A DNA stretch of 64,000 nt from Adineta vaga (Eukaryota; Animalia; Rotifera): NCBI GenBank assembly GCA_021613535.1, contig CP075493.1, forward strand, positions 4,464,001 through 4,528,000, in the 5' to 3' direction. The notes under the pieces were generated by a model. It was not told the DNA's origin. It did not search any database and saw only the letters and a program-made list of their open reading frames with translations. How positions within the stretch are numbered: position 1 is the stretch's first letter; each line of letters begins with the position of its first letter. Position numbers and translations under genes: made by a program. This document shows, in pieces, positions 4,742 through 45,612 of the stretch.

Positions 4742-5317
4742 TTTAAAATCTAAAATTGTATAGTATAAAATCACTTCTTTCACTCCTTCTGTCTAAGATA
4801 TGAACAATAATATCCTTAAATATTCACTCTATTTAAACGAAAGTTATTCTTTCAATTTCTATCCTTAAATTGATTAAATATCATTTGATAACCTTTTTCT
4901 CTCATAAATATACAAAGACAACAGATGGAAGCTTAATTTATTTTCGTTTTAAGAATATGCAAATATGCAATAAAAAATGTATGCACGACTTGAATCATAA
5001 GGACAAAGATTAGAAAGATTTAAGATGACGTTTTTCATGTGAAAGTTCGACGTCATACACTCTTTCATACCGACATAAAATTGAACTAAATTAGAAATAA
5101 ATAATAAAATATTAATTACAGATAAGCAACAAATAGGTGTACATACTTTACGTTCGTTGGCATCATTATCAGTTGTTCTTTTGATCTAAACAATCATGCG
5201 CATAGATTTTATTTCTCGTTGAAAGATTTTGAGCTTTAGTCGGATATTTTTCTAACTTTCATAATGTATTATACATATATTTTGTAGTTGTTGGAAACGA
5301 CTGATTATAACTATTAA

Positions 5318-7053: not shown

Positions 7054-7351
7054 CGTACAAGTTAAAACATGTTCCGTTATACAATTGTATTAGAACATAT
7101 ATAAATATACGTTTGGTTTATTTTGTATAATTTCGAAATACTACAAACTATCGTCATGAGAATGTTTCAAGGTTTGTAAGGACAAAAATCGAGTATAATT
7201 ATACTATTGACGTCATGTGGTTATAGATGCTATACGACTCTGTCTATATGTATGTAATTACACAAGATACAATCTCGAAAATAAAAATAGTAAATACGAT
7301 AATAACTGTGATTAAAATAGATAAAATTTTATTTCTCATTTTTATCAATTT

Positions 7352-8962
7352 TTAACAAGGTGGATATTTTATTTTTAAATATTCCATTAAACTTCTTGTC
7401 TGCGTTATGTTTGTATCATATAAAGTGATGACATTTGTATTATTTAATTGTGTATAATCACGTATATAAGATGTTGTTGCTACGGAATAATTAAGTCCAC
7501 TTTTCGATATATCTGTTCCATTGAAAAGCCATGTTTTACCACCATCAGATGTTTCAATTCGTGTATATGCAAGAAACATTCCATTACCTTTCAATGATAT
7601 ACCATATGTAAGTACTTGAGCAAGTAATACTCCAGGAACAGATATTGCAACAACACCATTTCCAAACGGTAATGTACGTAAAATATCATATTGTGAAATG
7701 GTTTCACGAAGAACATCATCAATTCGTACAGTTCCACCGTTGATAATACCAATTACTGTCCCATTACTTGCTGTGAAACTTAACATACTTTCACAAATTA
7801 AAGCAGTTAATTCCGTTGTAAAACTTCGTACAGATTCCGATCTACCATCTAATTCAAGACCTGGCGGTAAACAAGATACAATTGCTAATGGTTCATAACC
7901 TAATGCTTGAAAACCTTGAATACCTAAATTAAACCAATGATTCGCAACGATTGCTGTTTGTTTTTCATCCGGTATATCGGAAGTAATCGATGCTAAATTA
8001 CTATAAACACGAAATTGTTTTGTATCTAAATTGAAAGCACAACGATGAATATAAACAGTGAATGCATTTGCATCAGCTTTATAGATCGGTGTATACTTTG
8101 TTCCTCGTAAATAATAATAATTTTCATGTTCATGTCCACCAAGAATTAAATCAATTTGAGGAATTTTTGAAGCAAGTGCAGTATCAATTTGTAAATCTAG
8201 ATGAGTTATTGCTACAAGTACATCGTATGTGTTATTCGAAAAAGATTTTAAAAATTCTTGAACATATGAAACTAAAGATGTTTGATTAATATATCGAATA
8301 TATGAACCCGTTCCATCAACAGTTAAACCAATGAAAAGTATTCGAACTGTACCAATCGTAATAATTTTATGTGAAATACTTGAACCAAATAATTCATTTG
8401 AATCTTTTCGAAAGACATTAGAACTAATCCATGTAAATGTTGATTCATTCATTCGTGTAAGTAAATCATTTTCAGTTAAATCAAATTCGTGATTTCCAAA
8501 TGTCATCAAATCAAGACCGAGTGTATTCATGGTTGCAATCATTTGTTTACCATTTAAATTTGTTCCATTTACCTTTGATAAACTCAATGCTGATGGAGAA
8601 AGAAGATCACCAGCAAGAATTGTATATGTATGTGGATTTTCTTCTTTTAATAATTGCCGAACGTAAGCAACACGTGCTAAACCACCTTTACGTCCTCGAT
8701 CAAGTGGTAATAATTCATAAACATCATTCATATGTAAAAATGTCCATTGTACATATCGGCCATCTTTAGGTAAACGAATTGGATAACCGATAATTCCATT
8801 TTCAACAGCATAAACATACGAAGATACTTTCGTATTACGCCATAAACTAGCATATACAATAGTTAAAATAGTAAGAGATAGAATTATACCAATTAAGATT
8901 GTAAGAATAAGTCCATACGGAAAAAAAGACTTTTTCAATCGATCAATGGTAATTGGTGCCAT
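7352..8962 (-). CDS. 5'-nucleotidase/apyrase family (calcineurin-like metallophosphoesterase + 5'-nucleotidase C-terminal domain) with N-terminal membrane anchor, intronless
   Basis: Motifs HMNDVYE, AGDLL, GNHEFD, ITH, GGHEH, NGGTVR, LPFGN; hydrophobic segment at aa ~17-40. Confidence 0.9.
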   Translation of the reverse strand: MAPITIDRLKKSFFPYGLILTILIGIILSLTILTIVYASLWRNTKVSSYVYAVENGIIGYPIRLPKDGRYVQWTFLHMNDVYELLPLDRGRKGGLARVAYVRQLLKEENPHTYTILAGDLLSPSALSLSKVNGTNLNGKQMIATMNTLGLDLMTFGNHEFDLTENDLLTRMNESTFTWISSNVFRKDSNELFGSSISHKIITIGTVRILFIGLTVDGTGSYIRYINQTSLVSYVQEFLKSFSNNTYDVLVAITHLDLQIDTALASKIPQIDLILGGHEHENYYYLRGTKYTPIYKADANAFTVYIHRCAFNLDTKQFRVYSNLASITSDIPDEKQTAIVANHWFNLGIQGFQALGYEPLAIVSCLPPGLELDGRSESVRSFTTELTALICESMLSFTASNGTVIGIINGGTVRIDDVLRETISQYDILRTLPFGNGVVAISVPGVLLAQVLTYGISLKGNGMFLAYTRIETSDGGKTWLFNGTDISKSGLNYSVATTSYIRDYTQLNNTNVITLYDTNITQTRSLMEYLKIKYPPC

Positions 8963-9877: not shown

Positions 9878-12800
9878 ATGGCACACAACAATCGCCTCAC
9901 TCGTTTTACAGATGCAGCAGAAGAGCCTACAAGAGCCTTAACACCAATCAAAGGTTACGAGACAAAAGATTTAGTGTCATTGGAAGAGGCGACTGCTGAA
10001 GTAGATCCACCTATTTCTGATGTCGACAGTATGGTTTGGTTAGCAAAACGTGACTCCCGTAATCCATTAGATGAACTGACTTCCGATGAGTCAGCTTCCA
10101 TTCGGCTTTACACATCGGAATGGCCGGAAACGGAGCAGAGCGTTTATACAATATTGAACAAAAAATTGCGTTCCTCGAGACGACATGAACTTCGACCATG
10201 GTTTTCGTACCTAAAATTATTCTTAACTGCATTGTATAAATTACCATCATTGAAAACAACAATTTGGCGAGGAGTTTCTGGTAATATTGATGAACTTTAT
10301 AAAGAAGATTTTATTTGGTGGGGTTTCAGTTCATGCACTGCAACAATGAAAGTTGCAGAGAAATTTGTTGGTCGTACAGGTGTCCGTACATTATTTATGA
10401 TCGATTGTATCAATGGGAAATCTATTGAGTCACATTCACAATACAAAGATGAAAAAGAAATTTTATTAATGCCAGGTACATTCTTACGAGTTATTGATAA
10501 ATGCAATCCGGCCGATGATTTACACATTATCCGATTGCAAGAGGAGACACCGCCTTATCAACTGATCGCTCCACCATTTACTTCAGCATCAGCATCAGCA
10601 TTGAGTGTTAATACGTCGTCTTTTCAAAAACTGACAATATCCACAAGTGGTGCATCTACAACATCAGTTGGTAAGTTATTTTCTTTCAATAATGAGCAGG
10701 TCAGATATAACTATTCAGTGACTTGGTAAATGAGGTTAGCTATTTTTGTCTCTTATAAATAGAAAATAATAGTATAAGTAGACATAGAGCTTACATAAAT
10801 TATAGAAAACGAAGAAATAATTTCTTGAAATATTATATAAAAAATGAATAAATTTCACAGTATATCACCAGATAAAGTTACTGATTGTCTATATGTTACG
10901 AAAAAAATATGTAGAAGGCGTGTATTTCCCCTGAATCCTTCAAACTCGTTGTGTTTTGGCAACATTGTCATTATACTAGGTGATGATTAAGGATCAGAAG
11001 CTTTTCTACTTATTTGGACAAAAATAAAATGCAGGAAAGACTCGCTTCCAGCCATAAATTGCATATAATCTTTTTAGCTGTTCTTTTTATTCATTTAGAG
11101 ACAAAAAAAACAACGTTTTTATCGAAACCTCCAACATACAAAAATCCAAGACTTGAACAAAAGATCAACGAGAACAAAGACGAGTCTACTATTTTTTTAC
11201 ATTCTTCTAACTGGACGGATGACGATATGGAAATCGTTGCATATTATTTACTACGAGACAATAAGGTCAGTAATATGTTTTTCGTTTTCATCCTTATCAC
11301 TTAGCTGTCGAAAAATGAGAGATATTCCCAGAAAAAGTAATTTTTAGAAGCTACAAAGCGAAGCTACGCTCTGCATGTCAAAAGAATAAATTTAGCAAAC
11401 ATACGTTCGTATGGCTGTTATGACATTTCACAAAGCCCTAAAAGACCTTGTTTGATGAGACAATCTATTTAGAAGCAGAATGATCGCAGATGCAGTATAT
11501 TAATAGTGCGATTAAAACCCTGAATGATTTGATTAATATACAAGGTATGTAAGGAAAGCAGGAATAAATCGCAGTCTATCCCTTTTACCACTTTATATGA
11601 TTCAATGCAGGATACATAGCACTATACTAAAGTACGAGTGTGTATCTGCCTTTTTGTTTCCATGTCAAAGGATACTTCATTGAATTAACTATAGTCGTGC
11701 AAAGATTTGGATGCTTGTGAAAGATCCTAAACAATTTGACATGTTAAAAACTGGAGCAAAATCATAGATTCCTTGCTATAGTATTTTCATAATAAGGTCA
11801 TGATATTCACTAAATATTTTTCTTGTGTATCAAACAAAAGTCAGTTTGCAGTCAGATCATCCAATATTTTGATGGACCTCACAGTTCTTTTTCCTTACCA
11901 TCAGAGCATCTTGGTGATTGGTACGATGCTAAGCTACCTTTCTTTTCCTGGGACATAGCTTTCTAAGATATATTCAGTTGGTATTAGAACATAGGTACTT
12001 GACAACCAAAATCTAACAATTTCAATAATAGCTATATCCATGCAACAGTAGTACAAAGTAAAAGGAACATCGCTAACATTTTCATAGACGAATATGTTTT
12101 TAGAAAATGAGAACTAAATTAGAATGCTACTGTACAATAATCGAGAGAAAATGAATGTGTGAGAGTAGTAGATGCATGGTAACAAAAAATACAATAAAAC
12201 AATAACAATTGTAGCACTTCATAACTTCTATGTATAAGAAAGTTTAATGCGTAAGTGTAAAGCAATATTTTTTCTCATCGGGAAAATGCATGGCACAAGA
12301 GTTGCACTACTACCCGCAAGCAACTACTTGGATTTCATTATGGCCTTGGAACTGAAAATAAGAGAAAAATTTTTCACTCAAAGGCTAAAATTGATACTGT
12401 AATTAAAATATTCAAACTGATCAATAAAACCGATTCAGCTCATACTGTTTTGACCAAAAAATTGTTTTTCAAGAAAGCATTCGTTTCTGAGTAATCTCTC
12501 AATTAGTGACGCTTTTATTAAAACAACTATTTCAAACCACTGAACGAAATCTATCTCTTAAAAAGCACCTTGAGTATCTATTTTTTCTTGTAGCAAATCT
12601 AACGCTAAATTCTAATCGATCTATTTGACGTTATACAAGATAGAAACTTAGTATTTCTTTCCGAATTTTAATTACGAAGAAACCAGATGATACTTTTCTT
12701 TTTCAATCGAATTATTGCGATAACAACTAATTTTCCTGACTTCTGGAACGTTTAAGTGCACGAAGATGATATTCATTTTAGGTACTGATATTAACAAATA

Positions 12801-15800
12801 CTGTCTTCGAAATCATACGCCTAATTATATTTTTATTATCCTGTTTTACTATAAAAATAACAGACACATCTAATACTCTTCGTAGTTTCTGAAATATCTC
12901 CGTTTATCATAATAAGACAAACTTCAAATATCGTCTATACTAGCTTCCAATGTACCAGCAGAGCTAGCTACAACTAAAACATTCAATTTCGCTCATCTAA
13001 ACTGAAACACTCTCCTTCTTATTCCCTAGCAAATAATCATCCTTGAAAAATAATCCATCTGTCATTTTTCTCAACATTTCTCTAAGAACATTTAGAAGGA
13101 GGCACTTCATGCAAACATGAATGTTCAAAGAAATCTCAGTTACTCTTCTTGCTCTATAATATTTTCTCGAAAAGCTTTACAAAAACAAAAGTTTGTCCCT
13201 TTCCCGTTCTCCTTAACGTCACCTAAGCAATTTCCACCAGCAAGATTCCCGAATTCTCGATCTAAAAGGCATCGGGAAACATAAAAACACAACATCCATA
13301 GAAAACAAAAGTAGACAAAATTCATCTCCATCATATTACTTTCTAATTCATTCACCTTTTTTCTAATTAAAAATCTAGTCTTCATTATGATTTCCCAGAT
13401 TTAAACCACAAGTTCATTTCTCTAAATTCACAATGGACCTTCGAATAATATAATACGATACAACTCTATCCGAATACCCCAAAATTACAACATCTTTCTC
13501 TCTCTCTGGTTTCACTCATCTTTCGATCATCTTCATCTCTTTTATTTCATTCAGACACTCACTAGACTCTATCTCAACAACAATCAGATCGGAGACAAAG
13601 GTGCACAAGCATTGGTTGAAGGACTCCAAAAGAACGCAGTGAGACAATATCTTCCTCTCTCTCACTCTGCTTTCACTCATCTTTCGATCATCTTCATCGC
13701 TTTTATTTCATTCAGACACTCACAGAACTCGACCTCAACAACAATCAGATCGGAGACAAAGGTGCACAAGCATTGGCTGAAGGACTCCAAAAGAACGCAG
13801 TGAGACAATATCTTCCTCTCTCTCACTCTGCTTTCACTCATCTTTCGATCATCTTCATCGCTTTTATTTCATTCAGACACTCACAGAACTCGACCTCAAC
13901 AACAATCAGATCGGAGACAAAGGTGCACAAGCATTGGCTGAAGGACTCCAAAAGAACACAGTGAGACAACATCTTCCTCTCTCTCACTCTGCTTTCACTC
14001 ATCTTTCGATCGTCTTCATCTCTTTTATTTCATTCAGACACTCACTACACTCTACCTCAACAAGAATCAGATTGAAGACAAAGGTGCACAAGCATTGGCT
14101 GAAGGACTCCAAAAGAACACAGTGAGACAACATCTTCCTCTCTCCCTCACTCACTCTGCTTTCACTCATCTTTCGATCATCTTTCGATCATCTTCATCTC
14201 TTTTATTTCATTCAGACACTCACTAGACTCTACCTCCGCAACAATCAGATCGGAGACAAAGGTGCACAAGCATTGGCTGAAGAACTCCAAAAGAACACAG
14301 TGAGACAACATCTTCCTCTCTCTCTCTCACTCTGCTTTCACTCATCTTTCGATCATCTTCATCGCTTTTATTTCATTCAGACACTCACAGAACTCGACCT
14401 CAACAACAATCAGATCGGAGACAGAGGTGCACAAGCATTGGCTGAAGGACTCCAAAAGAACACAGTGAGACAACATCTTCCTCTCTCTCTCTCTCACTCT
14501 GCTTTCACTCATCTTTCGATCATCTTCATCTCTTTTATTTCATTCAGACACTCACTACACTCTACCTCAACAACAATCAGATCGGATACAAAGGTGCACA
14601 AGCATTGGCTGAAGGACTCCAAAAGAACGCAGTGAGACAACATCTTCCTCTCACTCTCACTCACTCTGCTTTCACTCATCTTTCGATCATCTTCATCTCT
14701 TTTATTTCATTCAGACACTCACTACACTCAACCTCGGCAACAATCAGATCGGAGACAAAGGTGCACAAGCATTGGCTGAAGGACTACAAAAGAACACAGT
14801 GAGACAACATCTTTCTCTCTCTCTCACTCTGCTTTCACTCATATTTCGATCATCTTCATCTCTTTTATTTCATTCAGACACTCACTACACTCTACCTCTT
14901 CAACAATCAGATCGGAGACAAAGGTGCACAAGCATTGGCTGAAGGACTACAAAAGAACACAGTGAGACAACATCTTTCTCTCTCTCTCACTCTGCTTTCA
15001 CTCATATTTCGATCATCTTCATCTCTTTTATTTCATTCAGACACTCACTACACTCTACCTCTTCAACAAGAATCAGATTGAAGACAAAGGTGCACAAGCA
15101 TTGGCTGAAGGACTCCAAAAGAACACAGTGAGACAACATCTTCCTCTCTCCCTCACTCACTCTGCTTTCACTCATCTTTCGATCATCTTTCGATCATCTT
15201 CATCTCTTTTATTTCATTCAGACACTCACTAGACTCTACCTCGGCAACAATCAGATCGGAGACAAAGGTGCACAAGCATTGGCTGAAGGACTACAAAAGA
15301 ACACAGTGAGACAACATCTTTCTCTCTCTCTCACTCTGCTTTCACTCATATTTCGATCATCTTCATCTCTTTTATTTCATTCAGACACTCACTACACTCT
15401 ACCTCTTCAACAATCAGATCGGAGACAAAGGTGCACAAGCATTGGCTGAAGGACTACAAAAGAACACAGTGAGACAACATCTTTCTCTCTCTCTCACTCT
15501 GCTTTCACTCATATTTCGATCATCTTCATCTCTTTTATTTCATTCAGACACTCACTACACTCTACCTCTTCAACAATCAGATCGGAGACAAAGGTGCACA
15601 AGCATTGGCTGAAGGACTACAAAAGAACACAGTGAGACAACATCTTCCTCTCACTCTCACTCACTCTGCTTTCACTCATCTTTCGATCATCTTCATCTCT
15701 TTTATTTCATTCAGACACTCACTACACTCTACCTCTTCAACAATCAGATCGGAGACAAAGGTGCACAAGCATTGGCTGAAGGACTACAAAAGAACACAGT

Positions 15801-16620
15801 GAGACAACATCTTTCTCTCTCTCTCACTCTGCTTTCACTCATATTTCGATCATCTTCATCTCTTTTATTTCATTCAGACACTCACTAGACTCTACCTCTA
15901 CAACAATCAGATCGGAGACAAAGGTGCACAAGCATTGGCTGAAGGACTCCAAAAGAACGCAGTGAGACAACATCTTCTTCTCCCTCACTCACTCTGCTTT
16001 CACTCATCTTTTGATCATCTTCATCTCTTTTATTTCATTCAGACACTCACTACACTCAACCTCTCCGAGAATCAGATCGGAGACAAAGGTGCACAAGCAT
16101 TGGCTGAAGGACTCCAAAAGAACACAGTGAGACAACATCTTCCTCTCTCCCTCACTCACTCTGCTTTCACTCATCTTTCGATCATCTTCATCTCTTTTAT
16201 TTCATTCAGACACTCACTAGACTCCACCTCTCCATCAATCAGATCGGAGAAAAAGGTGCACAAGCATTGGCTGAAGGACTCCAAAAGAACACAGTGAGAC
16301 AACATCTTCCTCTCACTCTGCTTTCACTCATCTTTCGATCATCTTCATCTCTTTTATTTCATTCAGACACTCACAGAACTCCACCTCAGGAGCAATCAGA
16401 TCGGAGAAAAAGGTGCACAAGCATTGGCTGAAGGACTCCAAAAGAACACAATGAGACAACATCTTCCTCTCACTCTGCTTTCACTCATCTTTCGATCATC
16501 TTCATCTCTTTTATTTCATTCAGACACTCACAGAACTCCACCTCAGGAGCAATCAGATCGGAGAAAAAGGTGCACAAGCATTGGCTGAAGGACTCCAAAA
16601 GAACACAGTGAGACAACATC

Positions 16621-16815: not shown

Positions 16816-18441
16816 GACGTGTAGTATTGGTTTCCAATAGTGTACTTATGTATTGAATCAGAAAAACGCAGTGAAAGTATTGAATTTATTGAAAAATACT
16901 GATGAAATTGTTTCTCTATTTGTTAACATTATGAATTGTATGTTAAAAGGTTGATCGTAGAGGAATAGATGAAAACGATTTTATTTTGCAATTTTTGTTT
17001 TGAAGATTTGCTGATTTATTACATGAAGTTAGATCGATTTGAAACATAGAACTGTTGACATTCGAAGTGTGATTTACATGAGATAGATATTACGTAAAGA
17101 ATTTTCAATGGAAGCAGCTGCTTTATACGATTCGTATTATAAGACAAATTAGAGTGTCTATTTCAAATGAATACTGCACAGGCGTATTTCGCCGATCATG
17201 TTGATTGAGTAAGCTCATATCGTGAAGTAAGCGTGTGAAGAGTTCTAGCAAGAGAAATACGACTGTTTGGGTTTTGTTTTGAACAAAGTAATTTAACGAT
17301 TTGCTCCATTATTGTAATACTGATGAGTGACACATTTGAAATGCACTATTTTTCTGAATAAATATCTCGTGTTTGTTCCGATGTGTCACGGATGATCTAT
17401 GGAAAGGCCATTTGTGAATGGTGTCTCTCTGAATAGAACGACATTATTGCTAAGCATAGAATGCAGAGAAACCTATGATCCGAAGTAGACATGAAGAAAT
17501 ATTTGGAATATCTTTTCGACAATTTGCTACTGTTAAAAAATGTTCAGGTGCAGTTTTCATACGATGCATCGCAGGAAATCTATTTGATTTCTGTTCTCTG
17601 ACAAACTGACTTTAAATTATGATGATTGTCCGTGAACTCAAATGCAGTTCGACAAGAAGCGCACCGACAACCAGTCCTTTGAAAGTTGAAATAGAAAAAC
17701 AAGAAATTTTCCTAATACACCGCTATAAGTTACAATTCAAGATCATAATATGATCTTATAGTCAAAATGCTGTTCGTACATTTGGATTGCTTTCCACTAT
17801 ATTGTCAACTTTGTCTCGTCTTGTTGTCTCCGTAAAAACTTCATATAATAATACGAAATCAATCAATACCACTATTTTTCAAATATAGAAGATTATACAA
17901 TCTCGAGCCGATTATGAGAAAGGAGAAATTATCAATACATTTTGATTTCATTACATTGCTGTAATATTCATAACGACAAAAGATTAAGGTTTGGTATTAT
18001 TTTTTTCTAAAGTATTTTGATACAATCATAAATATTCTAATCATCAAATAGATTATTCTTTCTTTTTCGCATAATAAAAACGTTTCTATCAAATTTGATT
18101 AATGTCTTTTCTTTTTCTCAAATAACAACCATATCGTCAAGGTTAAAATTTATTCTATCACATACTTGTTGGAAAAAAAAGAGAAAAAAATGTTTTGTGT
18201 TTTTTTATTCTCTTGAGAAAAATTTCTTGTTCTTCTCCTAAGTTGCTTTGTATGCAACGTCATGACTGTCTTCCTTTCTTTTTCTATTCGTTCTATTTAA
18301 AGAAAGAAAAAGGAAAAGAATTGAATGGCATACCAAATAAAATAAACTGTACACTTGAAAAACAACAAAGGTAAGAAATCTACCGCTCTCATAGTTAATC
18401 AATAAATAACAAATACACAATTCTAACTAAATCTTCAGATT

Positions 18442-20724
18442 ATGTCTTCATTTCGACCATATCAATGGACTTATCCACAAAAGACTGGAACTGGATTTAC
18501 TATTCTTCCTCGTTTTCCCACTTCAAATACTGATATCGAACAATATTTTTTACAATTAGCAACTCGATTGAAAAATTTTGATATTATCATCAATCATAAT
18601 TTACCATTTCTTTTACATGGACATTTAAAAGAATCGATTCATAGAGTACATAAATTACAATTACATGTTATACATAGATATATAAATAATATCGAACGAT
18701 TTTTAAGAATAATTAATGATAATTCGAATGGTTCACTGAATAGAAAACAACGATATGAAATCGAAAGAGAATTGAATAGTGTTATTAATGATTTAACTCA
18801 ACTATTAGAAAATATACAAACAAAAGCACGATTCATTAATGACTTAGTCGGACAAAATTTCATATATTTAAATGCGGGTCAATACAATTTCAATGAAATT
18901 AACGATGTAGAAATGTTAAAATATCTGTTAATGAAAGATTATAATAATGATCGTATTCTTTGTTCGAATGATATATTAAATAGTAATCATCAATCACAAT
19001 TAAAGATATTAATTCATGAACTTGTTGAAGAACGTAAGAGAAAACCAAATCTACGACTTGTCTATGCTGATTTTTCTAATTCCTTATTCAAATTACATGA
19101 TTTTATCGTACTACCATTCCGAACAAACTCGATTGAAAAACGTCTATTCGTACCAGTGACTAATAATGACACAGTACAGATTCTTTTACTCGGTGAGAGT
19201 GGAATCGGAAAATCCACATTTATCAATGCTTTTATCAACTATCTGACATTTGAAACACTTGAACGAGCACAATCAAAAACACCCGCTGTTGTTATTCCAG
19301 TTGAATTTATGATTACAGTGGGTGATCATTTCGAAGAACATCGAATCAAATTTGGTGAAAATAATGATTCCATGAATGAAGATTTCCATCATCCTGGACA
19401 CTCGGTAACACAACGTTGTAAATCCTATGTATTCAATCTTGGATCGAAAGATAAAAGAAAATTACGTATTATTGATACGCCAGGTTTTGGAGATACGCGT
19501 GGTATTGATCAAGATGAACAAAATATGCAACATATTTTAGAATATATTCATGATTTAACACATTTAAATGCTGTATGTTTTCTTCTTAAACCAAATGTAT
19601 CACGAATAAGTAGTTTTTTCTCATCTTGTCTCAATCAATTATTCGAATTAATGGGATCGAATTTTCATCAAAATATTATCTTTTGTTTCACCAATGCTCG
19701 ATCAACTTTTTACACACCAGGAGATACAGCACCTTTATTAAAAAATATTCTTCATGCACATCCTGTAAAACATATTCCATTCAATAAAGAAAATACATTC
19801 TGTTTTGATAATGAAGCATTTCGTTATCTAGTTGCTTTACAAAATAAAATTCATTTTACCAAAGAAGAACAACAAGAATATGAAACGAGCTGGTTAAAAT
19901 CAGTACAAGAATCTGATCGATTACTTCAATACATTCGTACACAATTGTCAAGTTATCCATTAGATGATACTCAACAATCCATTCAGCATGCTCGAATTGA
20001 AATTCATCAAATGATTCGTCCGATCTTAGAAGCAATGCGAAATCTTCTTCGAAATCGAATTCTATGGAATAGTAGTACTTCGACTAGATTGATTAAATTA
20101 TGTCCACAAGTTATTCAACGGTCAAGTGCATTTTGTAGATCCTGTAAACGAGATGCTTTCCATATAGGTCATTTTTGGATTCTGCCAGACGATGCACATG
20201 AATTTCGAAATAAGAAATGTTTAACATGTTCATGTGCTTTCGATCAACATATCATCATCGATTATATTCTTGGTTATGATACGATGGATTCATCTTTGAA
20301 TGATAACCAACTAGACAAAATCAATGATCTTCTTGAAATATTATGTGCAACTAGCGTGAATTTTGCTCTTTTTCTCAGGGATATGACTCGTTCAGGGAAA
20401 GAAGATCCATTTCTTATTGGTTTAAAACGTCTTCTTCACGAAGAACAACAAATTTGTACAGTTCATCATGAATCAAATCAATACAATTTACAATTAGTCG
20501 AAGAATTGAAAACACTTCTGATTTCTCACGACGAACAAATGACAAAGTTGAAATCGAGAGATTTATCATTTATTTATCAAAAAATCAAAACAACTAAGCA
20601 ATATTCAACTATTCAGGAACAAATGACGGCCATTCATCAACATAGAAGAAAATATAAAAATCAATGTTATGAATTTGAAATTATGAATAATTCGCTTCAT
20701 CGAAAAGCCTTCTCGTTCGCATAA
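18442..20724 (+). CDS. P-loop GTPase (TRAFAC class, septin/AIG1-like G domain) with Cys/His-rich C-terminal region, intronless
   Basis: G1 GESGIGKST, G2 SVTQ, G3 IIDTPGFGD, FCFTN, CFDNE; C-terminal CRSC...H...CLTCSC...H. Confidence 0.85.
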   Translation: MSSFRPYQWTYPQKTGTGFTILPRFPTSNTDIEQYFLQLATRLKNFDIIINHNLPFLLHGHLKESIHRVHKLQLHVIHRYINNIERFLRIINDNSNGSLNRKQRYEIERELNSVINDLTQLLENIQTKARFINDLVGQNFIYLNAGQYNFNEINDVEMLKYLLMKDYNNDRILCSNDILNSNHQSQLKILIHELVEERKRKPNLRLVYADFSNSLFKLHDFIVLPFRTNSIEKRLFVPVTNNDTVQILLLGESGIGKSTFINAFINYLTFETLERAQSKTPAVVIPVEFMITVGDHFEEHRIKFGENNDSMNEDFHHPGHSVTQRCKSYVFNLGSKDKRKLRIIDTPGFGDTRGIDQDEQNMQHILEYIHDLTHLNAVCFLLKPNVSRISSFFSSCLNQLFELMGSNFHQNIIFCFTNARSTFYTPGDTAPLLKNILHAHPVKHIPFNKENTFCFDNEAFRYLVALQNKIHFTKEEQQEYETSWLKSVQESDRLLQYIRTQLSSYPLDDTQQSIQHARIEIHQMIRPILEAMRNLLRNRILWNSSTSTRLIKLCPQVIQRSSAFCRSCKRDAFHIGHFWILPDDAHEFRNKKCLTCSCAFDQHIIIDYILGYDTMDSSLNDNQLDKINDLLEILCATSVNFALFLRDMTRSGKEDPFLIGLKRLLHEEQQICTVHHESNQYNLQLVEELKTLLISHDEQMTKLKSRDLSFIYQKIKTTKQYSTIQEQMTAIHQHRRKYKNQCYEFEIMNNSLHRKAFSFA

Positions 20725-29961: not shown

Positions 29962-31084
29962 TTACCCAGCCCGAGCTTCACGTATGTGTTCATGTCTAAA
30001 ACCAAGTCGAATTTTATTCGATAAATACTGTCTTAAATCATGATTATTTATAAATAAATGTATAACTACACTGCATAAAGACATTTCACATAATAGAACA
30101 GAACATGCATAGATAATTATATCAATATCAATCAGTTGATTGATAATACGAACAAAATAAATTGGACTCCAACCACCAATAAAAGTAGCAAAGACAAAAA
30201 TCATTTGTCGTACTAAAGCTACTTCTCGTGAATTAAATTTTATTTGTTGATTATTATTATTATTCGTTGTTAAAATATCGATAACTTGTGGTTGTATACG
30301 ACGTGATGATGATCGAATATAACGAAATATAAGAGCATTTAAAATAATTGTCGTCATCGAAGGAATAATAATAACCATAATACCCGTATAAATCCGACTA
30401 GAAAGTGGATCACTACAAATCTATAGAAGAAGATTATCAACATTTTCATTACATACTACAATCTTTATTCTAAATATAGTTGTTAATATCCTGAAGGAAA
30501 GGTACTGAAAATAAGAAATATATTCCGTCGTTGTCTACGACCTTATTTATATATTCGATTGATTACATCATTGCACCTAGTTGTGTTTAAGATTTGTAAG
30601 AAATCTCATTTTCAATGTATTCATCTCTATATCAGTAAAATTGACTTACTGAAACTTTGACGAAAATGACTGGTAACGAAAGAAGTAGAACAGTTATCCA
30701 TTGACTTGTAATACATATAATTACCCATCTTTTTGTCTTAAAAATTGGTTTTGTATGATAAACAATAAAGAAAAATCGATGAATAGAAAAAATCATAAAT
30801 CCAAATGGTACTCCAAGACTTGCGAAATTATATGCATAGAATAAAATAAAACATGAAGACATATTGAATAAAACTTCTGGATCATAATAATTTATTGTGA
30901 AATAAGTAATAAAAAAAGTACAACTGGCAATGACAGCTAAACATATATTGAGAATAAACATGTTATTTCGATGACGAAATCGACGAATACATAGAATTAA
31001 TATTGAATATGTTATTGTCAAGATTAGAGCCAATGCTAGAATAGCATCTTGAAGAATAGCAAAGATGAACGACGTATCTGTCAT
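29962..31084 (-). CDS. Divergent class-A (rhodopsin-like) GPCR, copy 1; exons 31084-30650, 30420-29962
   Basis: Seven hydrophobic segments, SIHRF (DRY-equivalent), GWSP in TM6; phase-0 intron verified in frame. Confidence 0.85.
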
Positions 31085-31296
31085 GATATTAAATGGATTC
31101 AGAAGAGTCGATGTTTAAATCTCTTGATAAATTTAGAGAAGAAGAAGAAGAAAACTTGACAGGTGCTTTTAATCTTATTAATAGCTTCTTCCAGTAATGG
31201 ACTTCATGTGAAGAGACAAAGATATTTATATCCTATTGATCATAAAATCTTTATTTAAAAAGAAGACATATACAAATGATTCCATTAAGAAAAGTT

Positions 31297-32422
31297 TTAA
31301 TGTCTGAAATAAAATTGAATCTTATCGGAGATATATTGTCGTAATTCACGATTAAATACAACTAGATTGAACACTAAGCTAAGTGCAGCTATTTCACATA
31401 TTAATACTAAAATTCCATTTGAAATCACGTCAACTGTTATGTATAGATTAACAATATTCGATAGATAAACTGGACTCCACCCAAGAATAAAAATAACAAA
31501 TGTAAATATCATTCGTTGCAATAAAACAATTTCTCGGCGACCGATTTTTCCTTGTTGATTAGAATTAATACCAGTGTTTATCACACTAAACACCTGTGGT
31601 AAAACACGACGAGTCGATGAACGAACATGTAAAAAAATAAGTCCATTCAATATGATATTGATTGTAGAAGGAATAATGATAGTCATTATACAGGCATAAA
31701 CTTGAAAACCAATTGAAATACCACAATACTAAAAAGTAAACTTCATAGAAAAGAACTTTTACTACATCTTAAAGATTATGAATACATCTTTTGAAACGAC
31801 ATGATAAAATACTATCAAGTAATCAGTGCTATTCATTTCACAAATAGAATTGAGTTTAATGAGGATAATAACATTTCGTTTCAATAATTTTAATATTCTC
31901 GAAGAATATTTTCAGTAATAGTGAATCATTTGAATCTTAGCTCTGTATTACTTACTGTGTAACAATTTAAAACAACAAGTAACTTACGGGTTCTGATCGA
32001 AAAACAAATGGTAATGATAAAAAAAATGTTAGAATCCATTGACTTGCAATACATATGATAACCCATTGTCTTGATTTGAAAAAAACTTTAGTATGATAGA
32101 TAATAAAGAAATACCGATGAATAGTAAAAGTAACAAAAGCAAATGGAATGCTTATATTAGCAATATTATTTGCATAAAATAATAGAATACATAAATGTTG
32201 AGCATATAAACGTTGTGGATCAAAATAAGATAATGTAAAATGAATGAAGAAATAAACACAACAACATATAACAGTAAAACAAATGTTGAATATAATCATA
32301 TTATTTCGATGACGAAAACGTTCGATGAAAAGAATTGATATTGATAATAGTATGGCTAAGAATATAGCTATTGCTAATAGACTATCTTGAAGGATGAGAA
32401 ATATATAACTTATATCTGTCAT
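31297..32422 (-). CDS. Divergent class-A GPCR, copy 2; exons 32422-31988, 31728-31297
   Basis: TIHRY, GWSP; same intron position and phase as copy 1. Confidence 0.85.
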
Positions 32423-32594
32423 GATGAAAGTGTAACTAATATGATCTTTGATTTCCAAATAAATGAGGTAAAAGAAGAATGTGAATGTTTTATTCTGCAT
32501 CCTAGATTATCAACACTTATTTCCGTTTGCTTTTTTGAAAGGAATAATTACATATACAAATGTCACAATCAATTCTATTCATCATATTTGTTTG

Positions 32595-33494
32595 TTAACG
32601 TCGAAAGCAATTACGTATTTTATCTGATAAATATTGTCTTAGTTCACGATTATACATAAATAAATTAATAACAATGCCTAAGACACATATTTGACTAAAG
32701 ATTAAACAGATTTGAACAAATTTAAAATCCATATCCATTGCTTCGTAGAAAATACTGATGATAAAAGCAGGTGTCCAACCTCCAACAAACATTGAAAACA
32801 TAAAAATCATTTGTCGTAATAATGCAATATCTCGACGATTGATCACTATCTGTGGATTAATTGCACCACTTGTTGTTGTACTAAGCATTTGAGGATGAAC
32901 ACGACGTGTAGAAGAACGAACATGAAGAAAAATCAAAGTATTAAGTATGAGATTTAGAATCGATGGTAAAACAGCAGCAATTACAAATGTATAGATTGTT
33001 AACCATAATTGATTACCACAATACTAGAACAAAAATTTCGATCTTCTTTACAAAACAAAACTATCGTCACTCACTCGTTTCGATCTGAAAAAGAATGGAA
33101 TTGAAATAACAAATTGAGAGATCCATTGAGAAGCAATACATATAATTACCCATCTTTTCTTTTTGAAAAAAGGTTTATAATGAAATTTCAATAAACATAA
33201 ACGATGTACTGAAAAAGCAACGAATGCAAATGGTACTTCTATACTCGCAACATTAAATGTATAATATAGCAAATTACATATTTGTCGAGGATATTCATAG
33301 TCAGCAATGATAAAATAAACGATAAAGTAAACCCAAGTGATGATAACTGTAATACACATATTGAGTATAAATACATTATATTGATTATGAAAACGTCGAA
33401 TACATATTATTGACAATGTATAGACTAAAGCGACGAGTAAATTGATTGCATATAAACCGCCTTGTAGGATAGTTAAAAAGTCACCGACATTCAT
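32595..33494 (-). CDS. Divergent class-A GPCR, copy 3; exons 33494-33075, 33023-32595
   Basis: SVHRL, GWTP; 51-nt phase-0 intron at the homologous site. Confidence 0.85.
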
Positions 33495-34430
33495 CCTTGT
33501 TAAAACAAACTAATTTGAGAAAATAAGAAAAGATTGTATGCAAGATAAAAACTCAATTTTTGATATCGTATAATTCATTAATCCGATTGCTGTTTTTCTA
33601 ATCTTTCTAATGCAATATGTAGAAGGAGAAGATTACTTGAGTAATCAAAAAAAAAGCAATTATTTTGTTTAAAAATAAATTTGTGACGTTAATTTAATGG
33701 ATATACTCTGTTCTTTCCAGGCTTAAACAATCGTTCTACTTTCAGAGAACTTTTACGTACTCTTTGGAAATGAAATATTGTTTAATGCAAATGACAGCAG
33801 ATGATTTGTCAGAAAGAAACGATCATGTCTGAGTATGGAAAAGACAGGTAGATTATTTTGCTTTAACAATATATATATTTACTAATACCTTTGCTATATT
33901 ATCGTAGAATTTCGGTCAAAATTAACTATTACAATTCTTGATAACAATAAAATATATTGCCGAAAATAAGAAACAAAAACCAAATCATAGTTACATAAGT
34001 ATTCTTCATCGTTTTCTCTTCGACTATTTGAACTTATCGACGTGCACATTTTTTATCTTCTTACTTTTGTATTTATTTCATAGTTGAAAAAAAATTATTA
34101 TGAATTAATCCTATAGCCTTAAGTATTTTCTTCGTATTATCGGATAATTGAAAAGTCACGTTTAAAAATCAGTTCTAATTCACAAGATATAAATGGATAT
34201 GATAAATTTGGAAACAGTAATCATTTGCCGTATCATTGAAAGATCTCTTCGATTAATTTTTATCTGAACATGAATGTTAACAATTTCGTCATAAGGAATG
34301 AATCAATTCGCCTATTTATTGATCATAGAATCTCAAACTATATCTAAATCTTGTCTATACTGATGAGACATGTTTTATTTTTGTTTCTATATATTCTAAT
34401 TAAAATATAGAAAACGTTCTTATACGTCGT

Positions 34431-38173: not shown

Positions 38174-38657
38174 GGCGTCTGAATATCACCTGATGAGTAT
38201 AGCGTACATACCTCCATGTGTTTTTGTTTTTCACTGACAACAGTCAACAATTATTTCGTCTTTTTTTTCTTTCCTTCTATAAAAAAAAATAATTGCATCG
38301 CCAACGTCGTGAACGATTTCTTTTTTTTCGTTATTCATACAAAAAACGATGGCACGTTGTGATTTTTGTTAAAAATGTACTGTAAAACATTCGCGAAGTA
38401 GAATGTTGATGCATATGGACAGTTCAATCAAATATAAACGATAGAATTGTCGCTACCTGTCATTGATCTATTTGTGATGGTAAAACATTTTATTGTAGGC
38501 GAATGCCATCATATAAAAAAAAAGGTGATTTTTGTTTGGTCGATGAAAACAACGAATATAACGGTAGATAAAGATAAAACTTTTTGGAGTACCTATTTTC
38601 GACCTACTTGTTACAAATAACTATTGAATTAGTGTAATAGACACGAAGCTAAGTAAT

Positions 38658-39416
38658 ATGACTGATGATAATTCACCACTGGGAGAAATTGTTCCAAATT
38701 GGACACCACGAGCTCATCCTCTGTCCGATCCTCAATATCATAGTATTCAAGGTCAATATTGTCGACTTGAATTACTTAATTCCAAAACAAATGATCAAGT
38801 CTTTCAACAATTGTATGATGCATTCAAACCAATCGAAGACATGCATTTTAAATATTTAAAATACGGTCCATTTAAAACAGTCGATGATGTCAAAGAACTT
38901 GTACGTCAAAAAGAGCAGCCTAGTAGTAATACTGTTCTATATACGATCTTTGTTAATGATATCGCTGTCGGCTTTGTTGGTTATTTAAGAATTGATTGTG
39001 ATCAAGGTACAATTGAAATTGGAAATGTTAATTATGGTCATGAATTAGTACGAACACGACAAGCAACGGAAGTGGTCTTTTTGTTATTGAAATATGCATT
39101 TGATACACTTGGATATCGACGTGTTGAATGGCGATGTAATTCGTTGAATAGCAAATCTCGAGTAGCTGCTGGAAGATTTGGTTTTCAATATGAAGGTACA
39201 TGGTTGAAATCGGAAGTTGCGAAAGGTCGATCAAGAGATAATTCATGGCATAGTATTATCGATGATGAATGGTCATTAGTAAAACAAGAATTTCAACGTT
39301 GGTTAAATGCTAATAATTTTGATCAAACTGGTCAACAATTGACGAAATTAAATGCAAAAAAAGTGAATCCACGTCAACGAAAAATTACTGATGCCGATCA
39401 ACAAAAATATGATTAA
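38658..39416 (+). CDS. GNAT acetyltransferase, RimJ/RimL-like, intronless
   Basis: GTIEIGNV, AFDTLGYRRVEWRCNSLN, RFGFQYEG, KGRSRD.SW.SIIDDEW motifs. Confidence 0.9.
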   Translation: MTDDNSPLGEIVPNWTPRAHPLSDPQYHSIQGQYCRLELLNSKTNDQVFQQLYDAFKPIEDMHFKYLKYGPFKTVDDVKELVRQKEQPSSNTVLYTIFVNDIAVGFVGYLRIDCDQGTIEIGNVNYGHELVRTRQATEVVFLLLKYAFDTLGYRRVEWRCNSLNSKSRVAAGRFGFQYEGTWLKSEVAKGRSRDNSWHSIIDDEWSLVKQEFQRWLNANNFDQTGQQLTKLNAKKVNPRQRKITDADQQKYD

Positions 39417-39536: not shown

Positions 39537-42500
39537 CTAAGAAAATAGTGGATGAAGTAATGAATACTCTGGGTGAGTTTCTCGAAGATGTATTATATGT
39601 AAACCATTTCCTGGATTTAATTGTCCAATAACTTGAAATTGAGTAGCAGGTAAAAGGAGAATTTCTTTTTCCTTTTGAAAATATGAATGAGCACCAATTG
39701 ACTTTCCGGTTTTACATTCAATATTAAATAATGTTCGAACACCAATTTGTCCAACAAATCGATTTGATTTGAGATAATGCAATGAATCAGTACAAGAACT
39801 AAATAAGATAAAACGAAATATAGAATGTTACCCGAAAAAAATCATTTTACCTAAATCCCCACCAAACAATAGTTTTACCCACTGGATATTCAGTACTTAA
39901 ATCCATTCGTACACCACGCCATACTGTTTGTTCGACGGATTTCAATTTGCATAGACCAGTTAGAAGAAGTTTTAAATATAATAAATATACACGTAGTTCA
40001 ATTCGATCTTCGGCTCGTAATGCACCGTTAAGTTTTGCATACAGTGATTGACTACCGAATGACCATTCCATTGTATACAATTGAATAGCAGCAGATTCAT
40101 CGTTTGTCAATCCATCAGATGGATTCATACTTCTGTCGAGAGCAATCAATGCATTTTGTTTAATTCTATGTACAATAGAATCGAGATGTTCAACAGCAGT
40201 AACCAATGATACTAATGGTATACTTTCATAACCTTCAATACTAGAAAATAATAGAAAAGCGACATTTTGATTAGGTTAAACTGCGAACGCTATGACATAC
40301 GATAAACGTGATGATTGTCGTTCATATTGAACATCTAAAAACCGTTCCTCTACTTTTGTGTATACTGGAAACTTATCTTCTATAAAAATACATATTATAT
40401 TTACGACTTGAAACTTTTTTCACATTTTGAATCTCAACATGAAAGAATTTCCAATATTCCCTCACATTCACAAACATAGACAAAGTAATAAAAAAAAAGT
40501 ATTCTTACTTGAATTGATAGATATAGATATATCTGAATATTCAGGTGTCGTATGTCTAAGTCAAAGAATATAATCAATCGAATGATTTTTTTATCTTATA
40601 TTATATACCGAATCAGGTTGATTTTTTCAGATGATGGATCAATCTGAATACGATTATCTCTATACCATTTATATCCATGATCATCAACAATCAATAATGT
40701 AACACGACCTTCTTGATGATATGAATATCCGATTAATTGATAGACATCATGTAAAGTTTTCTCCTCAATATTTTGTTCATTTACTTCAATAATGTAATCA
40801 CCATTGTATACTTGTGTATATGCAGCGGGTGATTCTAATTGAAGTTGTTGTATTCGATAGGCTTGATCATTTGTCAATATATTTGTTGCTCGAATTATTT
40901 CAAAACCAAGATCTTTATAATGAGCCCATGACTAATAAATATCATACAAAAGTCAGGATAGAAGAAACGAATGTTCTATTTAACAATGAATACATACTCG
41001 AATCGTACACAGTCGTATCTGTGGATATAATGATATCGATCTATATGTATCTTCATTCGTTACTTCTAATAATAAATGACCATCGATGATTTTAGTCTCA
41101 TCTTGAATTAATGATATCAGTTTATCTAATTTCATTTTAACCACAAGTTGGTTATTCACACGTATGATATAATCTCCAATAGAAAGACCTGCATTACTGG
41201 CTGGTGATAATGGTTTGATAGAAATAATTCGAAATGATATACCTTTTGTTTGTACAGAAAAGCCGTAATTTTCGAAGTTTTGATTTGCTTTTAAACGATA
41301 TTGACGTATGTTTTTCGATGAATTGTGTTTTGATAATTTATTCATTCGTAGAATTTCTAAATATTGTTGATAAATAGTTTTTTCTGCAACTAATAAAAGT
41401 ATTGTTTCATTGTTATTTAGACGATCGAGAAGATTAATTAATTGTTCATGAGTGAAATGTTCAATATTTTCATTATTAATCGATAGAATATAATCATTTA
41501 AATGAAGATTTGATAGATTGATTTGAAAATTTACATCAATAGACGTTATTACATGACTATACAATGAATTTTCATTGGATATTGTATGAAAATTGAAACC
41601 AAAACTATTTGAACATTTTTTAATGATTATAATCCGTGGTTGTGAGGACAATATTGATGATTCTTTAGATTTCGATGTGTTCAATAAAGATGTAGGCTTT
41701 GGATCAGTAGCTAGAATGTGTAGAGAGAAAAAAAAGAGTAGAAATTGAAAAAGAAGAATAAAGTGGTTCATACGACGAGGTGGTGGAATATTTGACGGAG
41801 AAGGTATATTTGGTGGTAGAATACAAACATTTGAAAGTTTTCGATAAATACGTTTGTTTTGTTGTTGATAGTAATGATAAGTTGGAACATCGACTACTAA
41901 CAGTTGTAATGAATTTGGATATTTAATTGCATGAATACGCTGTTTAATTTCTTCATTAGTAAGATTTTCAATATTTTTACCATTAATTTCGATTAATCGA
42001 TCATTAGGTTTTATACCAGCAAGTTCAGCATCTATAACTCATCATCAATATATCTAGAGGTTGAATGATAGTAAAATTCTTACCTGATAATCGATTCTGA
42101 CAACTTGGTACGATATTTAATACATGTGATCGTTCTTTTTGATTATAATCTATAACAAAACCAGGCGGGTCTCTTGAATTAGTTCGTAGAATTGTACACA
42201 ATCGAATATCTTCTTGTAATACTTTAGATAATCATAATTTGAATCTTACTTATTTCGATCAATTCTACTTACTTGATATTTCAGGATTTGATATATGATG
42301 TACTTTTGATGGTTCTGTACGATTTGGTGTAGATTGATTTTTTAATGTCAAATGTTTATTATTCATTTCTTGAAATAGTTTTATCGATTGACTCTTTCGT
42401 AATCCACTTGATGATAAAGGTATTTTGTTTGCTTTAAAATATCTATATGTTTCAGTATCAACGACATATAATTTTACTGAACGTCTTGTCTCGGCTTTAT

Positions 42501-43125
42501 TTAACTTTTTAAGTATAGAATCACTTGAATCATTATCGACATATTTATCATTGATTTCAATTATTCGATCATACTTACGTAAGGATGTTTTACTGGCTGG
42601 TGATTTTGGTTTTATTTCTTCAATGAATAGTCCGATTTTATTTTCACCTTCAGCAATAGTAAGACCAAAACTTGTATCTTTCTCATGTAAATCGATAATG
42701 CATGTACGTGGTTGATATTTATGGAAATACTTATATTCAATTGGCATGACACGAGGTGTTTCAATGATTTTAGCTGATGCTGCTTTAATAAAAATATCTT
42801 CTTGACTCAACAGTGCATGTGCATCTTTTGCAATAACTAATAATTCAAGACGATTAGAACTCGATTGTGATGTTCGTATGATTTCTTTTAATTCATCATA
42901 AGTCATTGATGAAATATCATAATTATTCACAAAAAGAAGAACATCATGTATTCGAAGACCACCAGCAACAGCTGGACTATGTGATTCAACACTTTGAATT
43001 ATATAAGGTGGTAGAGGTACTGAAGCATCGAGACTAAAACCAAAGCCATTATAATTAGACCATGTACATAATCGACAAATACGAATACAGTCATCATTTG
43101 AATATTTTGTTTTAATTGCAGCCAT
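39537..43125 (-). CDS. Six NHERF/PDZK1-like PDZ domains fused to a C-terminal R-S-E ADP-ribosyltransferase (~1020 aa, 9 exons)
   Basis: Exons 43125-42273, 42221-42084, 42031-41774, 41710-40998, 40931-40609, 40555-40509, 40379-40301, 40240-39851, 39798-39537. All introns are GT..AG, total 3063 nt in frame. PDZ signatures GFGF, SFGL, PPGF, SFGF, NYGF, DLGF; ART motifs VWRG, FSSCT, EKE. Confidence 0.8.
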
Positions 43126-44268: not shown

Positions 44269-44919
44269 TTGTTTCGATATGTGTCTACAATATGTTTAGA
44301 AATATTCACGAGTAGAATAGTTGTTTGTTGATAAAATACTTGGGCACATTTAGTGTAAGAAAGTATATTCTATCGAGCTATAGACGAAATGACATCATAT
44401 AAAATGAAGAAAAAAAACGTTCTTTTATTTTTTATAATAATCTCACTATATTTACAATTGAATATAAATATCTTTTCGATTTAAAGAAAGTTCTATACAT
44501 TTGACATCTATGATAAATCATGTTAGATTGTGACCTCTATATACAATTATATCATTCATTTCGCTCTTATCCATTAATATTATGACACGTCATTCTTCTT
44601 GAATTCGTTGTTTTCACTAACTTCTTTCATATGATTGTTAAAAACAATCATCAATCTAAATATAATATGAACGTCATTCAAATGCATATATATTTACAGA
44701 GCATAAGTGATTATTTGTTTTCTACAGAATCGATGTGACGCATTTTTCTTTCAGAGAATAAAATTTTTTCAAAGAAAATATATTGTCTATTTGTTGCGTA
44801 ATATGTCAATAATGATTCATTAAAACTTAACATCATTTTATTATTACTACGAAAAACACAATATATAAATAGGAGATTGAAATCCTTACTCAAGCAATTT
44901 TTTTACTTTTCCATAGACT

Positions 44920-45612
44920 ATGTCAAATACAAAGTCTCGTGTACGCCTAATTTTTATTCGTCATGGTCAATCGGAAGCTAACCTTCTTTCGGAAACTATA
45001 TGTGGTCAAAATATTCCAAGTAGATTAAGTCCATTAGGATGCGAACAAGCTGTTCTGTTAGGCAAACGATTAAAATATCAGAAGATTAATTTCGATTATA
45101 TTCTGTGTTCAAATGCAATGCGTGCAAAACAAACAGCAGAAATTGCTTTACAATTAACCAATATGGATGTATCAAAATTAATCCTATCCGATGCACTTTT
45201 AGAACAATCACAAGGTGATTGGGAAGGAAAGAATCGTTACTTATGTTATACAGCAGAAATTATGACACGAATGAGTGATTTACATATTGAATTTAGTTCA
45301 CCCAATGGTGAATCTATTCGAATGGTACAAAAACGTGCAATTGAATTTTTAGAACCATATATTGAACGAGCAAAACAACAAAGTATAGAAGAAAATCGAG
45401 AAATATCTATTGCTATATTTGGTCATGCTAATTGTACACGATCTATTTTACAATATTATTTGGAAACAAATGCGAGATATTCATGGCTTATTGGACAAGA
45501 AAATACTTCAATAACTGAAATTCTATTTAATGAACATGGTACAGCGATGGTTAAAGTTAATGATGCAGCACATTTAACATTTCCCATACCTGACTTGTCT
45601 GAAGAGAAATAA
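44920..45612 (+). CDS. Histidine phosphatase (phosphoglycerate mutase-like) family protein
   Basis: FIRHGQS, RAKQTA, LLEQSQGDWEG, GES, FGHA, ENTSI motifs. Confidence 0.9.
   Translation: MSNTKSRVRLIFIRHGQSEANLLSETICGQNIPSRLSPLGCEQAVLLGKRLKYQKINFDYILCSNAMRAKQTAEIALQLTNMDVSKLILSDALLEQSQGDWEGKNRYLCYTAEIMTRMSDLHIEFSSPNGESIRMVQKRAIEFLEPYIERAKQQSIEENREISIAIFGHANCTRSILQYYLETNARYSWLIGQENTSITEILFNEHGTAMVKVNDAAHLTFPIPDLSEEK

Follow-up and report, generated by a model that had tools for sequence, protein, structure and literature searches.

A probable chimeric gene of Adineta vaga that joins six scaffold PDZ domains to an arginine-type ADP-ribosyltransferase

How does an enzyme come to sit at the end of a scaffold protein, and what could it do there? 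The question is raised by a gene of the bdelloid rotifer Adineta vaga, encoded on the minus strand at 39537-43125 of the 64,000-nucleotide (nt) window that was analysed (assembly GCA_021613535.1, contig CP075493.1, 4,464,001 to 4,528,000; positions are those of the window throughout), a stretch of AT-rich, eukaryotic-type composition (GC ~0.30). Nine exons join here into a single open frame of exactly 1020 amino acids (aa) that opens with six PDZ domains and closes with an arginine-type ADP-ribosyltransferase (ART). An earlier note, made from the sequence alone, had proposed this architecture, the exons with their eight introns and the catalytic motif; splice frame, Pfam matches and contigs bear the frame out. 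What the note missed is where the two halves come from: the first was copied from a nine-PDZ scaffold of the same animal and has diverged rapidly, and the second belongs to a large ART family that appears to swap its partners. We propose that this chimeric gene encodes a cytosolic arginine ART aimed by its PDZ domains at the cell cortex, a reading to which we give roughly even odds (about 0.5).

The frame starts with an ATG at 43125, the first after an in-frame stop, and ends with a stop codon at 39539-39537. Exon 1 (42273-43125; aa 1-285) holds PDZ1, PDZ2 and a linker, and RNA-type contigs extend beyond it to 43139; exon 2 (42084-42221) and exon 3 (41774-42031) each carry half of PDZ3, the latter adding a Pro-rich linker; exon 4 (40998-41710) holds PDZ4 and PDZ5, and exon 5 (40609-40931) PDZ6. 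Pfam recognises two PDZ stretches in exon 1, three in the open reading frame at 40983-42038 and one in exon 5, six in total; with exons scanned singly, PDZ6 scores 20.8 bits, below the 23.2 cut-off. Exon 6 (40509-40555) is a 47-nt remnant of the parent scaffold's following exon, identified by alignment. The enzyme occupies the remainder: exon 7 (40301-40379; 79 nt) encodes the N-terminal family motif RFxD, exon 8 (39851-40240) the helical part and the catalytic R912, and exon 9 (39537-39798) the S-S motif, E977-x-E979 and the stop. Split across the last two exons, the ART reaches 17.2 bits (below the 22.3 cut-off) and 27 bits in the same exon-by-exon scan. All eight introns, on the minus strand, are GT-AG: 42272-42222, 42083-42032, 41773-41711, 40997-40932, 40608-40556, 40508-40380, 40300-40241 and 39850-39799. 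Seven measure 51-66 nt; intron 6, the joint between scaffold-derived and ART-derived DNA, measures 129 nt.

Is this frame read as one message? Seven of the eight introns are listed joints with CT..AC ends in contigs of four RNA-type runs from one study (42221/42273, 42031/42084, 41710/41774, 40931/40998, 40555/40609, 40240/40301 and, in three of the four runs, 39798/39851). No record labels these contigs as RNA; they are taken for RNA on the strength of their splice joints, since a DNA-type run spanning 40002-41094 has none there. Runs X5 and X6, with zero splice joints, and the part of exon 4 with no true contig cover (~41275-41660) are not used as evidence. Intron 6 is crossed by a 233-nt contig that also splices intron 5 (pieces 40609-40776, 40509-40555 and 40362-40379); its ART side falls below the mapping threshold of 31 letters for a bridge. 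Intron 6 is not fixed by frame openness in itself, since 17 of the 44 donor-acceptor pairs in the region keep it open; the contig selects 40508/40380. Contigs enter exon 7 from both sides, one of them (523 nt) joining exons 7, 8 and 9, and leave 17 letters between them uncovered (40345-40361). This gap adjoins an allelic difference, present in the DNA-type run at 40361, at which the contigs presumably break. The chain of junctions that the earlier note had singled out for checking, 40609>40555>40379>40240, is seen as listed joints at its two ends (40555/40609 and 40240/40301) and in the middle in one contig, with a short 40379 side; no single contig runs through the whole chain. The ART also lacks a start codon of its own that would include the N-terminal family motif: no ATG of intron 6 is in frame with exon 7, and at 842, where the ART has its earliest Met, the other allele encodes Thr. 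One mRNA very probably runs from the PDZ exons through the ART exons.

Public annotation stops short of the enzyme. Exon 1 is 100% identical to A. vaga I4U23_001443 (UJR14446.1, 692 aa), a model that starts at Met74, reads from exon 5 into intron 5 and stops there, omitting the ART. In a second gene set (PMC12220480 with its Table S2, cited here and below from the parts consulted), the gene is FUN_003675, placed via a neighbour order that matches the window, as FUN numbers differ from I4U23 numbers. PDZ is its only listed domain, a GNAT gene comes next, and no gene is listed between the two in that part of the table; thus the ART exons are missing from that set as well.

Where does the PDZ half come from? 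The likeness to NHERF that the earlier note had remarked on holds: the 19 best PDB matches are all PDZs of NHERF1, NHERF2 or PDZK1, and relatives occur in Priapulus and vertebrates. The parent is the scaffold I4U23_001938 of A. vaga itself, an enzyme-free protein of nine PDZs and 1420 aa whose orthologues include proteins of Rotaria and of Didymodactylos. The fusion protein is colinear with it over aa 14-777, where the alignment ends, at ~47% identity, and introns 2, 4 and 5 of the fusion gene lie at the scaffold's intron places (locus L007). Against two scaffold loci, 35 of 52 letters agree on the exon 6 side of the donor and 7-8 of 36 past it, and the donor GT at 40508 aligns with a GT inside the parent scaffold exon; this places the graft in intron 6, which alone among the eight is long. 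By these alignments, the PDZ half is a fast-diverged duplicate in which the ART, joined by way of a new donor, stands in place of the last three PDZs and the C-terminal tail of the scaffold. The pace of change is evident: the fusion PDZs are 46-57% identical to those of I4U23_001938, while the scaffold itself is 76-92% identical to three Rotaria orthologues. Four of the five inter-PDZ linkers are shorter than in the scaffold, and deletions fall mostly in linkers. The hydrophobic-Gly-hydrophobic loop is retained in five of the six PDZs, and PDZ4 retains its helix-B His. In PDZ3, the carboxylate-loop F is P (exon 2) and the helix-B His is Asn (exon 3), both at positions that we take to belong to the PDZ groove.

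Is the second half a working enzyme? Its catalytic motif (R912, S934-S935, E977-K-E979) is an intact R-S-ExE, as the earlier note had read it, and all ten aligned ART rows conserve the Arg and the last Glu. The family motifs, read from alignments, are present too: the RFxD...PI(E/K)GY leader, LYT(M/S)EW, WRG and WWG.SSCT. According to the part consulted of a 2010 review, ExE is the mark of arginine-specific ARTs (PMC3102197). The family profile finds Vis, a Tre1-type chain, HopU1 and rat ART2.2 with weak scores, and a model of a paralogue in the window at 9878 (pLDDT 86.6) finds the same folds, with a Foldseek E of 1e-10 to 4y1w. In the hydropathy profile of the 1020 aa, the highest 19-residue value, 1.32, lies within the ART, so nothing points to a leader, a membrane span or an anchor. 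These features suggest an ART half that is probably catalytically active and likely cytosolic, lacking a signal peptide.

The enzyme has a large kindred. It is 46-54% identical over ~220-230 aa to all eight bdelloid-type ARTs tested, including the Rotaria ART-LRR proteins P0001 and P0004. One relative lies in the window: the second ART of the family at 9878-10729 (+), with its own ATG, corresponds to FUN_003687 and is flagged as horizontal gene transfer (HGT) in PMC12220480. It is followed by tandem LRR_6 exons (~13400-16300, +) that may belong to an ART-LRR gene split in annotation, comparable to P0001 and P0004. The core of this paralogue, 46% identical to the fusion gene's ART, is free of introns; intron number therefore does not date the ART family, and the earlier note's argument that two introns within the ART signify long residence is not supported, the six-PDZ fusion itself being found in one species. 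The Table S2 counts given here cover the first ~7,600 genes of A. vaga, 44 of which carry PF01129. In 24 of these 44 rows it is accompanied by another Pfam entry (TPR, LRR, ankyrin, WWE, TRAF/RING, NACHT, phosphatase, hydrolase and others), 19 are flagged as HGT by the authors, and 14 have 'uracil-DNA glycosylase' (UDG) among their listed matches (PMC12220480). The 44 rows run from FUN_000003 to FUN_005112, with 20 among the first 1,000 genes and no further one at 5,113-7,613; one, FUN_001375, joins the ART to an ADP-ribosylglycohydrolase. By domain content, the bdelloid family is thus an expanded one with freely swapped partners, which makes the PDZ-ART fusion one shuffle among many.

Where did the family itself originate? 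The nearest bacterial relatives found are UDG-like-ART fusions, 34-40% identical over 160-220 aa at all six loci compared (from the set L049-L055: Polyangiaceae, Streptomyces, Embleya and Nonomuraea); in L049, the N-terminal region matches solved structures of uracil-DNA glycosylases with an E of 2e-15. The Streptomyces copy, L051, has an extra N-terminal macro domain. In further collections, none of 84 pattern matches in viral contigs encodes a relative, a GTDB pattern scan yielded one locus among 34 stretches and then two of the 201 genomes of that locus's phylum, and a plasmid collection gave four records. In a tree that is unrooted and built without protist or other-animal rows, the bdelloid-type rows, including the fusion ART, split from the six bacterial rows at 100/100. 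The listed matches of the 9878 paralogue are protist proteins (PMC12220480). A foreign origin of the ART half is likely on such comparisons.

Has the graft happened more than once? In a protein search, 765 representatives passed an E of 0.001, of which the best 150 were inspected. In Adineta ricciae, CAF1635814.1 (P0043) carries PDZ2-PDZ3 and, directly behind them, 52 aa from the start of an ART module with its N-terminal motif; the model ends within this ART start, on a 5.2-kb contig, and may represent another PDZ-ART gene, broken at a different point. On the question of one origin or two for this gene and the A. vaga fusion, the tree offers a long branch. The six-PDZ-ART form is seen in A. 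vaga only. Rotaria places other tails on the same head: among 30 longer proteins, four have a macro-PARP tail and one a HEPN-TPR-Sel1-MYND tail. The Rotaria grafted proteins (P0009, P0036, P0185-P0187 and P0010) have a two-PDZ head and a break after PDZ2. P0050 combines three PDZs with a C-terminal part that has no Pfam match. The head of P0010 groups with the Rotaria scaffold (support 98/93), which implies at least two graft events, and a single origin of the five grafted heads is rejected at a p-AU of 0.028, a lenient value as the group was named only after the first tree was seen. A shared origin with the PARP-fusion heads has tree values of 66/86, compatible with either outcome. The scaffold head has been reused for ADP-ribose writers more than once, with macro-PARP tails in Rotaria and an ART start after PDZ3 in A. 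ricciae.

What would such a protein do? PDZ domains bind protein C-termini. In our preferred reading, a duplicate of the nine-PDZ scaffold kept the first six PDZs and lost the last third, its exons being very likely spliced to the ART module in one mRNA; the six-PDZ array is predicted to dock on membrane proteins of the cell cortex by their C-terminal tails, and the ART would then move ADP-ribose from NAD+ to arginines of the PDZ clients or their neighbours. A role in defence or stress signalling may be suspected from the company that the ART family keeps (LRR, TPR, ankyrin, NACHT, TRAF/RING, WWE and ADP-ribosylglycohydrolase). Several observations weigh against the proposal as a whole. The fusion joint is seen in one contig only, with 18 letters on its short side; every spliced contig comes from a single study; and among the contigs mapped none links PDZ6 to the catalytic residues. 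PDZ3 departs from the scaffold at two groove residues invariant in six of six scaffold rows. Expression is low (baseMean 34.7, measured on the PDZ-only model FUN_003675; PMC12220480). Selection is weak and non-significant for either half taken singly (p 0.07 and 0.09, transition bias uncorrected). The unfamiliarity of the architecture, which the earlier note had flagged and the searches support, counts on this side too: a second complete PDZ + R-S-E ART protein was not found, one of the best 150 of 765 representatives having an ART piece of 52 aa; no ART is carried by any of the 30 longer proteins, nor by any of 25 bdelloid-like metagenome loci, many of them short (48 loci before L026-L048, 23 weak PDZ matches, were dropped). 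Eight of these 25 loci show the scaffold's own tail, and L023 has PDZ1-3 with no enzyme recognised by eye downstream. In the open-access literature searched, neither a PDZ-ART fusion nor the function of the bdelloid ART family is described, and none of its members is given an activity or a target.

Could the gene be a mere by-product of domain shuffling, young and weakly constrained, transcribed and spliced but serving no selected function and drifting to loss? Its restriction to one species, the low expression and the gap between PDZs that have fallen to 46-57% identity and a scaffold held at 76-92%, with four of five linkers shortened, would all fit, as would the excess of nonsynonymous over synonymous changes between alleles (25 versus 15). 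Drift of this kind is nonetheless unlikely: about half of the PDZ residues have changed, yet 1020 codons contain no stop or frameshift, deletions keep mostly to linkers, and the catalytic triad is intact. The alleles, which differ by no stop and no indel, have a per-site nonsynonymous/synonymous ratio of ~0.47, off neutral at p 0.018 with the whole gene pooled. A copy that diverges fast, and changes its grooves, while the host scaffold stays conserved would also fit another purpose, in which the PDZ array poses as that essential scaffold and traps pathogen or parasite proteins by their C-terminal motifs; binding would then switch the ART on, against the invader or against the animal's own cell. 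Such a decoy would explain why effector-type tails (HEPN, PARP, ART) were repeatedly grafted on one head, a single origin being rejected, and why the ART family's partners look like immune sensors. We consider this decoy distinctly unlikely, for expression is seen to change only in spaceflight, where it falls slightly (log2 change -0.35, false discovery rate 0.035, for FUN_003675; PMC12220480), and in the part consulted of the main text of a paper on the A. vaga response to a fungal pathogen, 'ADP' and 'ribosyl' occur zero times (PMC11258130).

Two further alternatives question the product itself. If intron 5 were retained in the main transcript, the locus would chiefly yield a PDZ-only protein of ~765 aa, and the ART exons would be a separate unit or a minor read-through; UJR14446.1 does stop in intron 5, and no contig extends over both halves, 17 letters of exon 7 remaining uncovered. 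This division is improbable, given that the sole contig over intron 5 splices it and continues across intron 6 into exon 7, that a separate ART would lack an in-frame start, and that the published table, in the part consulted, has no gene between FUN_003675 and the GNAT gene. A single protein might, alternatively, hydrolyse NAD+ or act on a non-protein target: the nearest bacterial relatives found are UDG-like fusions, and rat ART2 hydrolyses NAD+ rather than modifying proteins (PMC3102197). Rat ART2, however, has QxE where the fusion protein has ExE (PMC3102197), and the PDZ partners would point to proteins of the cell cortex, which leaves a non-protein activity highly improbable.

How does the cortical ART that we favour compare with known systems? 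With the bdelloid PF01129 family ('NAD(P)(+)--arginine ADP-ribosyltransferase') it shares the N-terminal motif and the triad, and it differs by the N-terminal six-PDZ array, PDZ being absent from all 44 rows counted in the ~7,600 genes covered. With the NHERF/PDZK1 scaffolds it has tandem NHERF-type PDZs in common; the scaffold is enzyme-free with a tail of its own, whereas the fusion ends in an ART. The vertebrate ecto-ARTs (ARTC; rat ART2.2, PDB 1gxy/1og3) have the R-S-E fold, PF01129 and, in arginine-specific members, ExE, as here, but are membrane-bound or secreted (PMC3102197), unlike a protein with no hydrophobic leader or anchor; ART2.2 scores 21-25 bits and the bacterial UDG-ART fusions 152-174, values obtained with two different family profiles. 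The bacterial fusions share the ART and have a DNA-repair-type partner in place of PDZs. The Rotaria PDZ-macro-PARP and PDZ-HEPN-TPR-Sel1-MYND proteins resemble it in joining an effector tail to the same head; their tails are of other enzyme classes and their break follows PDZ2. A parallel in gene birth is offered by arthropod 'HGT-chimeras', in which a duplicated animal gene is combined with a likely foreign segment and the chimeric copy evolves faster (PMC13389597, in the part consulted). As there, one part of the fusion gene is metazoan; the other is likely foreign, on an unrooted tree. That screen concerns arthropods, and 'rotifer', 'PDZ' and 'ADP-ribos' appear 0 times in the part of its main text consulted. 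The PDZ-ART architecture is new; the class of enzyme and the way in which the gene arose are known ones.

The surroundings of the gene have features of their own. It is flanked by a GNAT acetyltransferase (38628-39416, +) and a histidine phosphatase (44917-45612, +), both flagged as HGT in PMC12220480; the GNAT transcript converges on the fusion gene, coming to within ~45 letters of its 3' contig end. Farther away, a 765-aa open frame at 18427-20724 (+) contains an AIG1/septin-like GTPase domain and is likewise flagged as HGT in PMC12220480, and tandem small hydrophobic frames at 29962-33509 (-) resemble, by eye, two-exon genes of the G-protein-coupled receptor type.

A wider design can be imagined, in which bdelloids run cytosolic arginine-ADP-ribosylation with enzymes descended from a horizontally acquired UDG-ART that grew into a large family, swapped modules aim the individual members, and the scaffold was captured separately by ARTC- and PARP-type writers as an aiming or decoy module, a recurrent device of cortex defence; we regard this as doubtful. 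Nearer to the data, the locus is a readable case of chimeric gene birth, with parent gene, common introns and recruited splice donor all visible, even if its significance is tempered by its being one shuffle in a family that has many. That the public model lacks the whole enzyme suggests that architecture counts for the ART family are too low. All vertebrate arginine ARTs known in 2010 were ecto-enzymes, with no intracellular one characterised at that time (PMC3102197). If our reading is true, arginine ADP-ribosylation inside animal cells could be studied directly with this cytosolic R-S-ExE enzyme, which carries its own address, because the PDZ ligands would name the candidate substrates.

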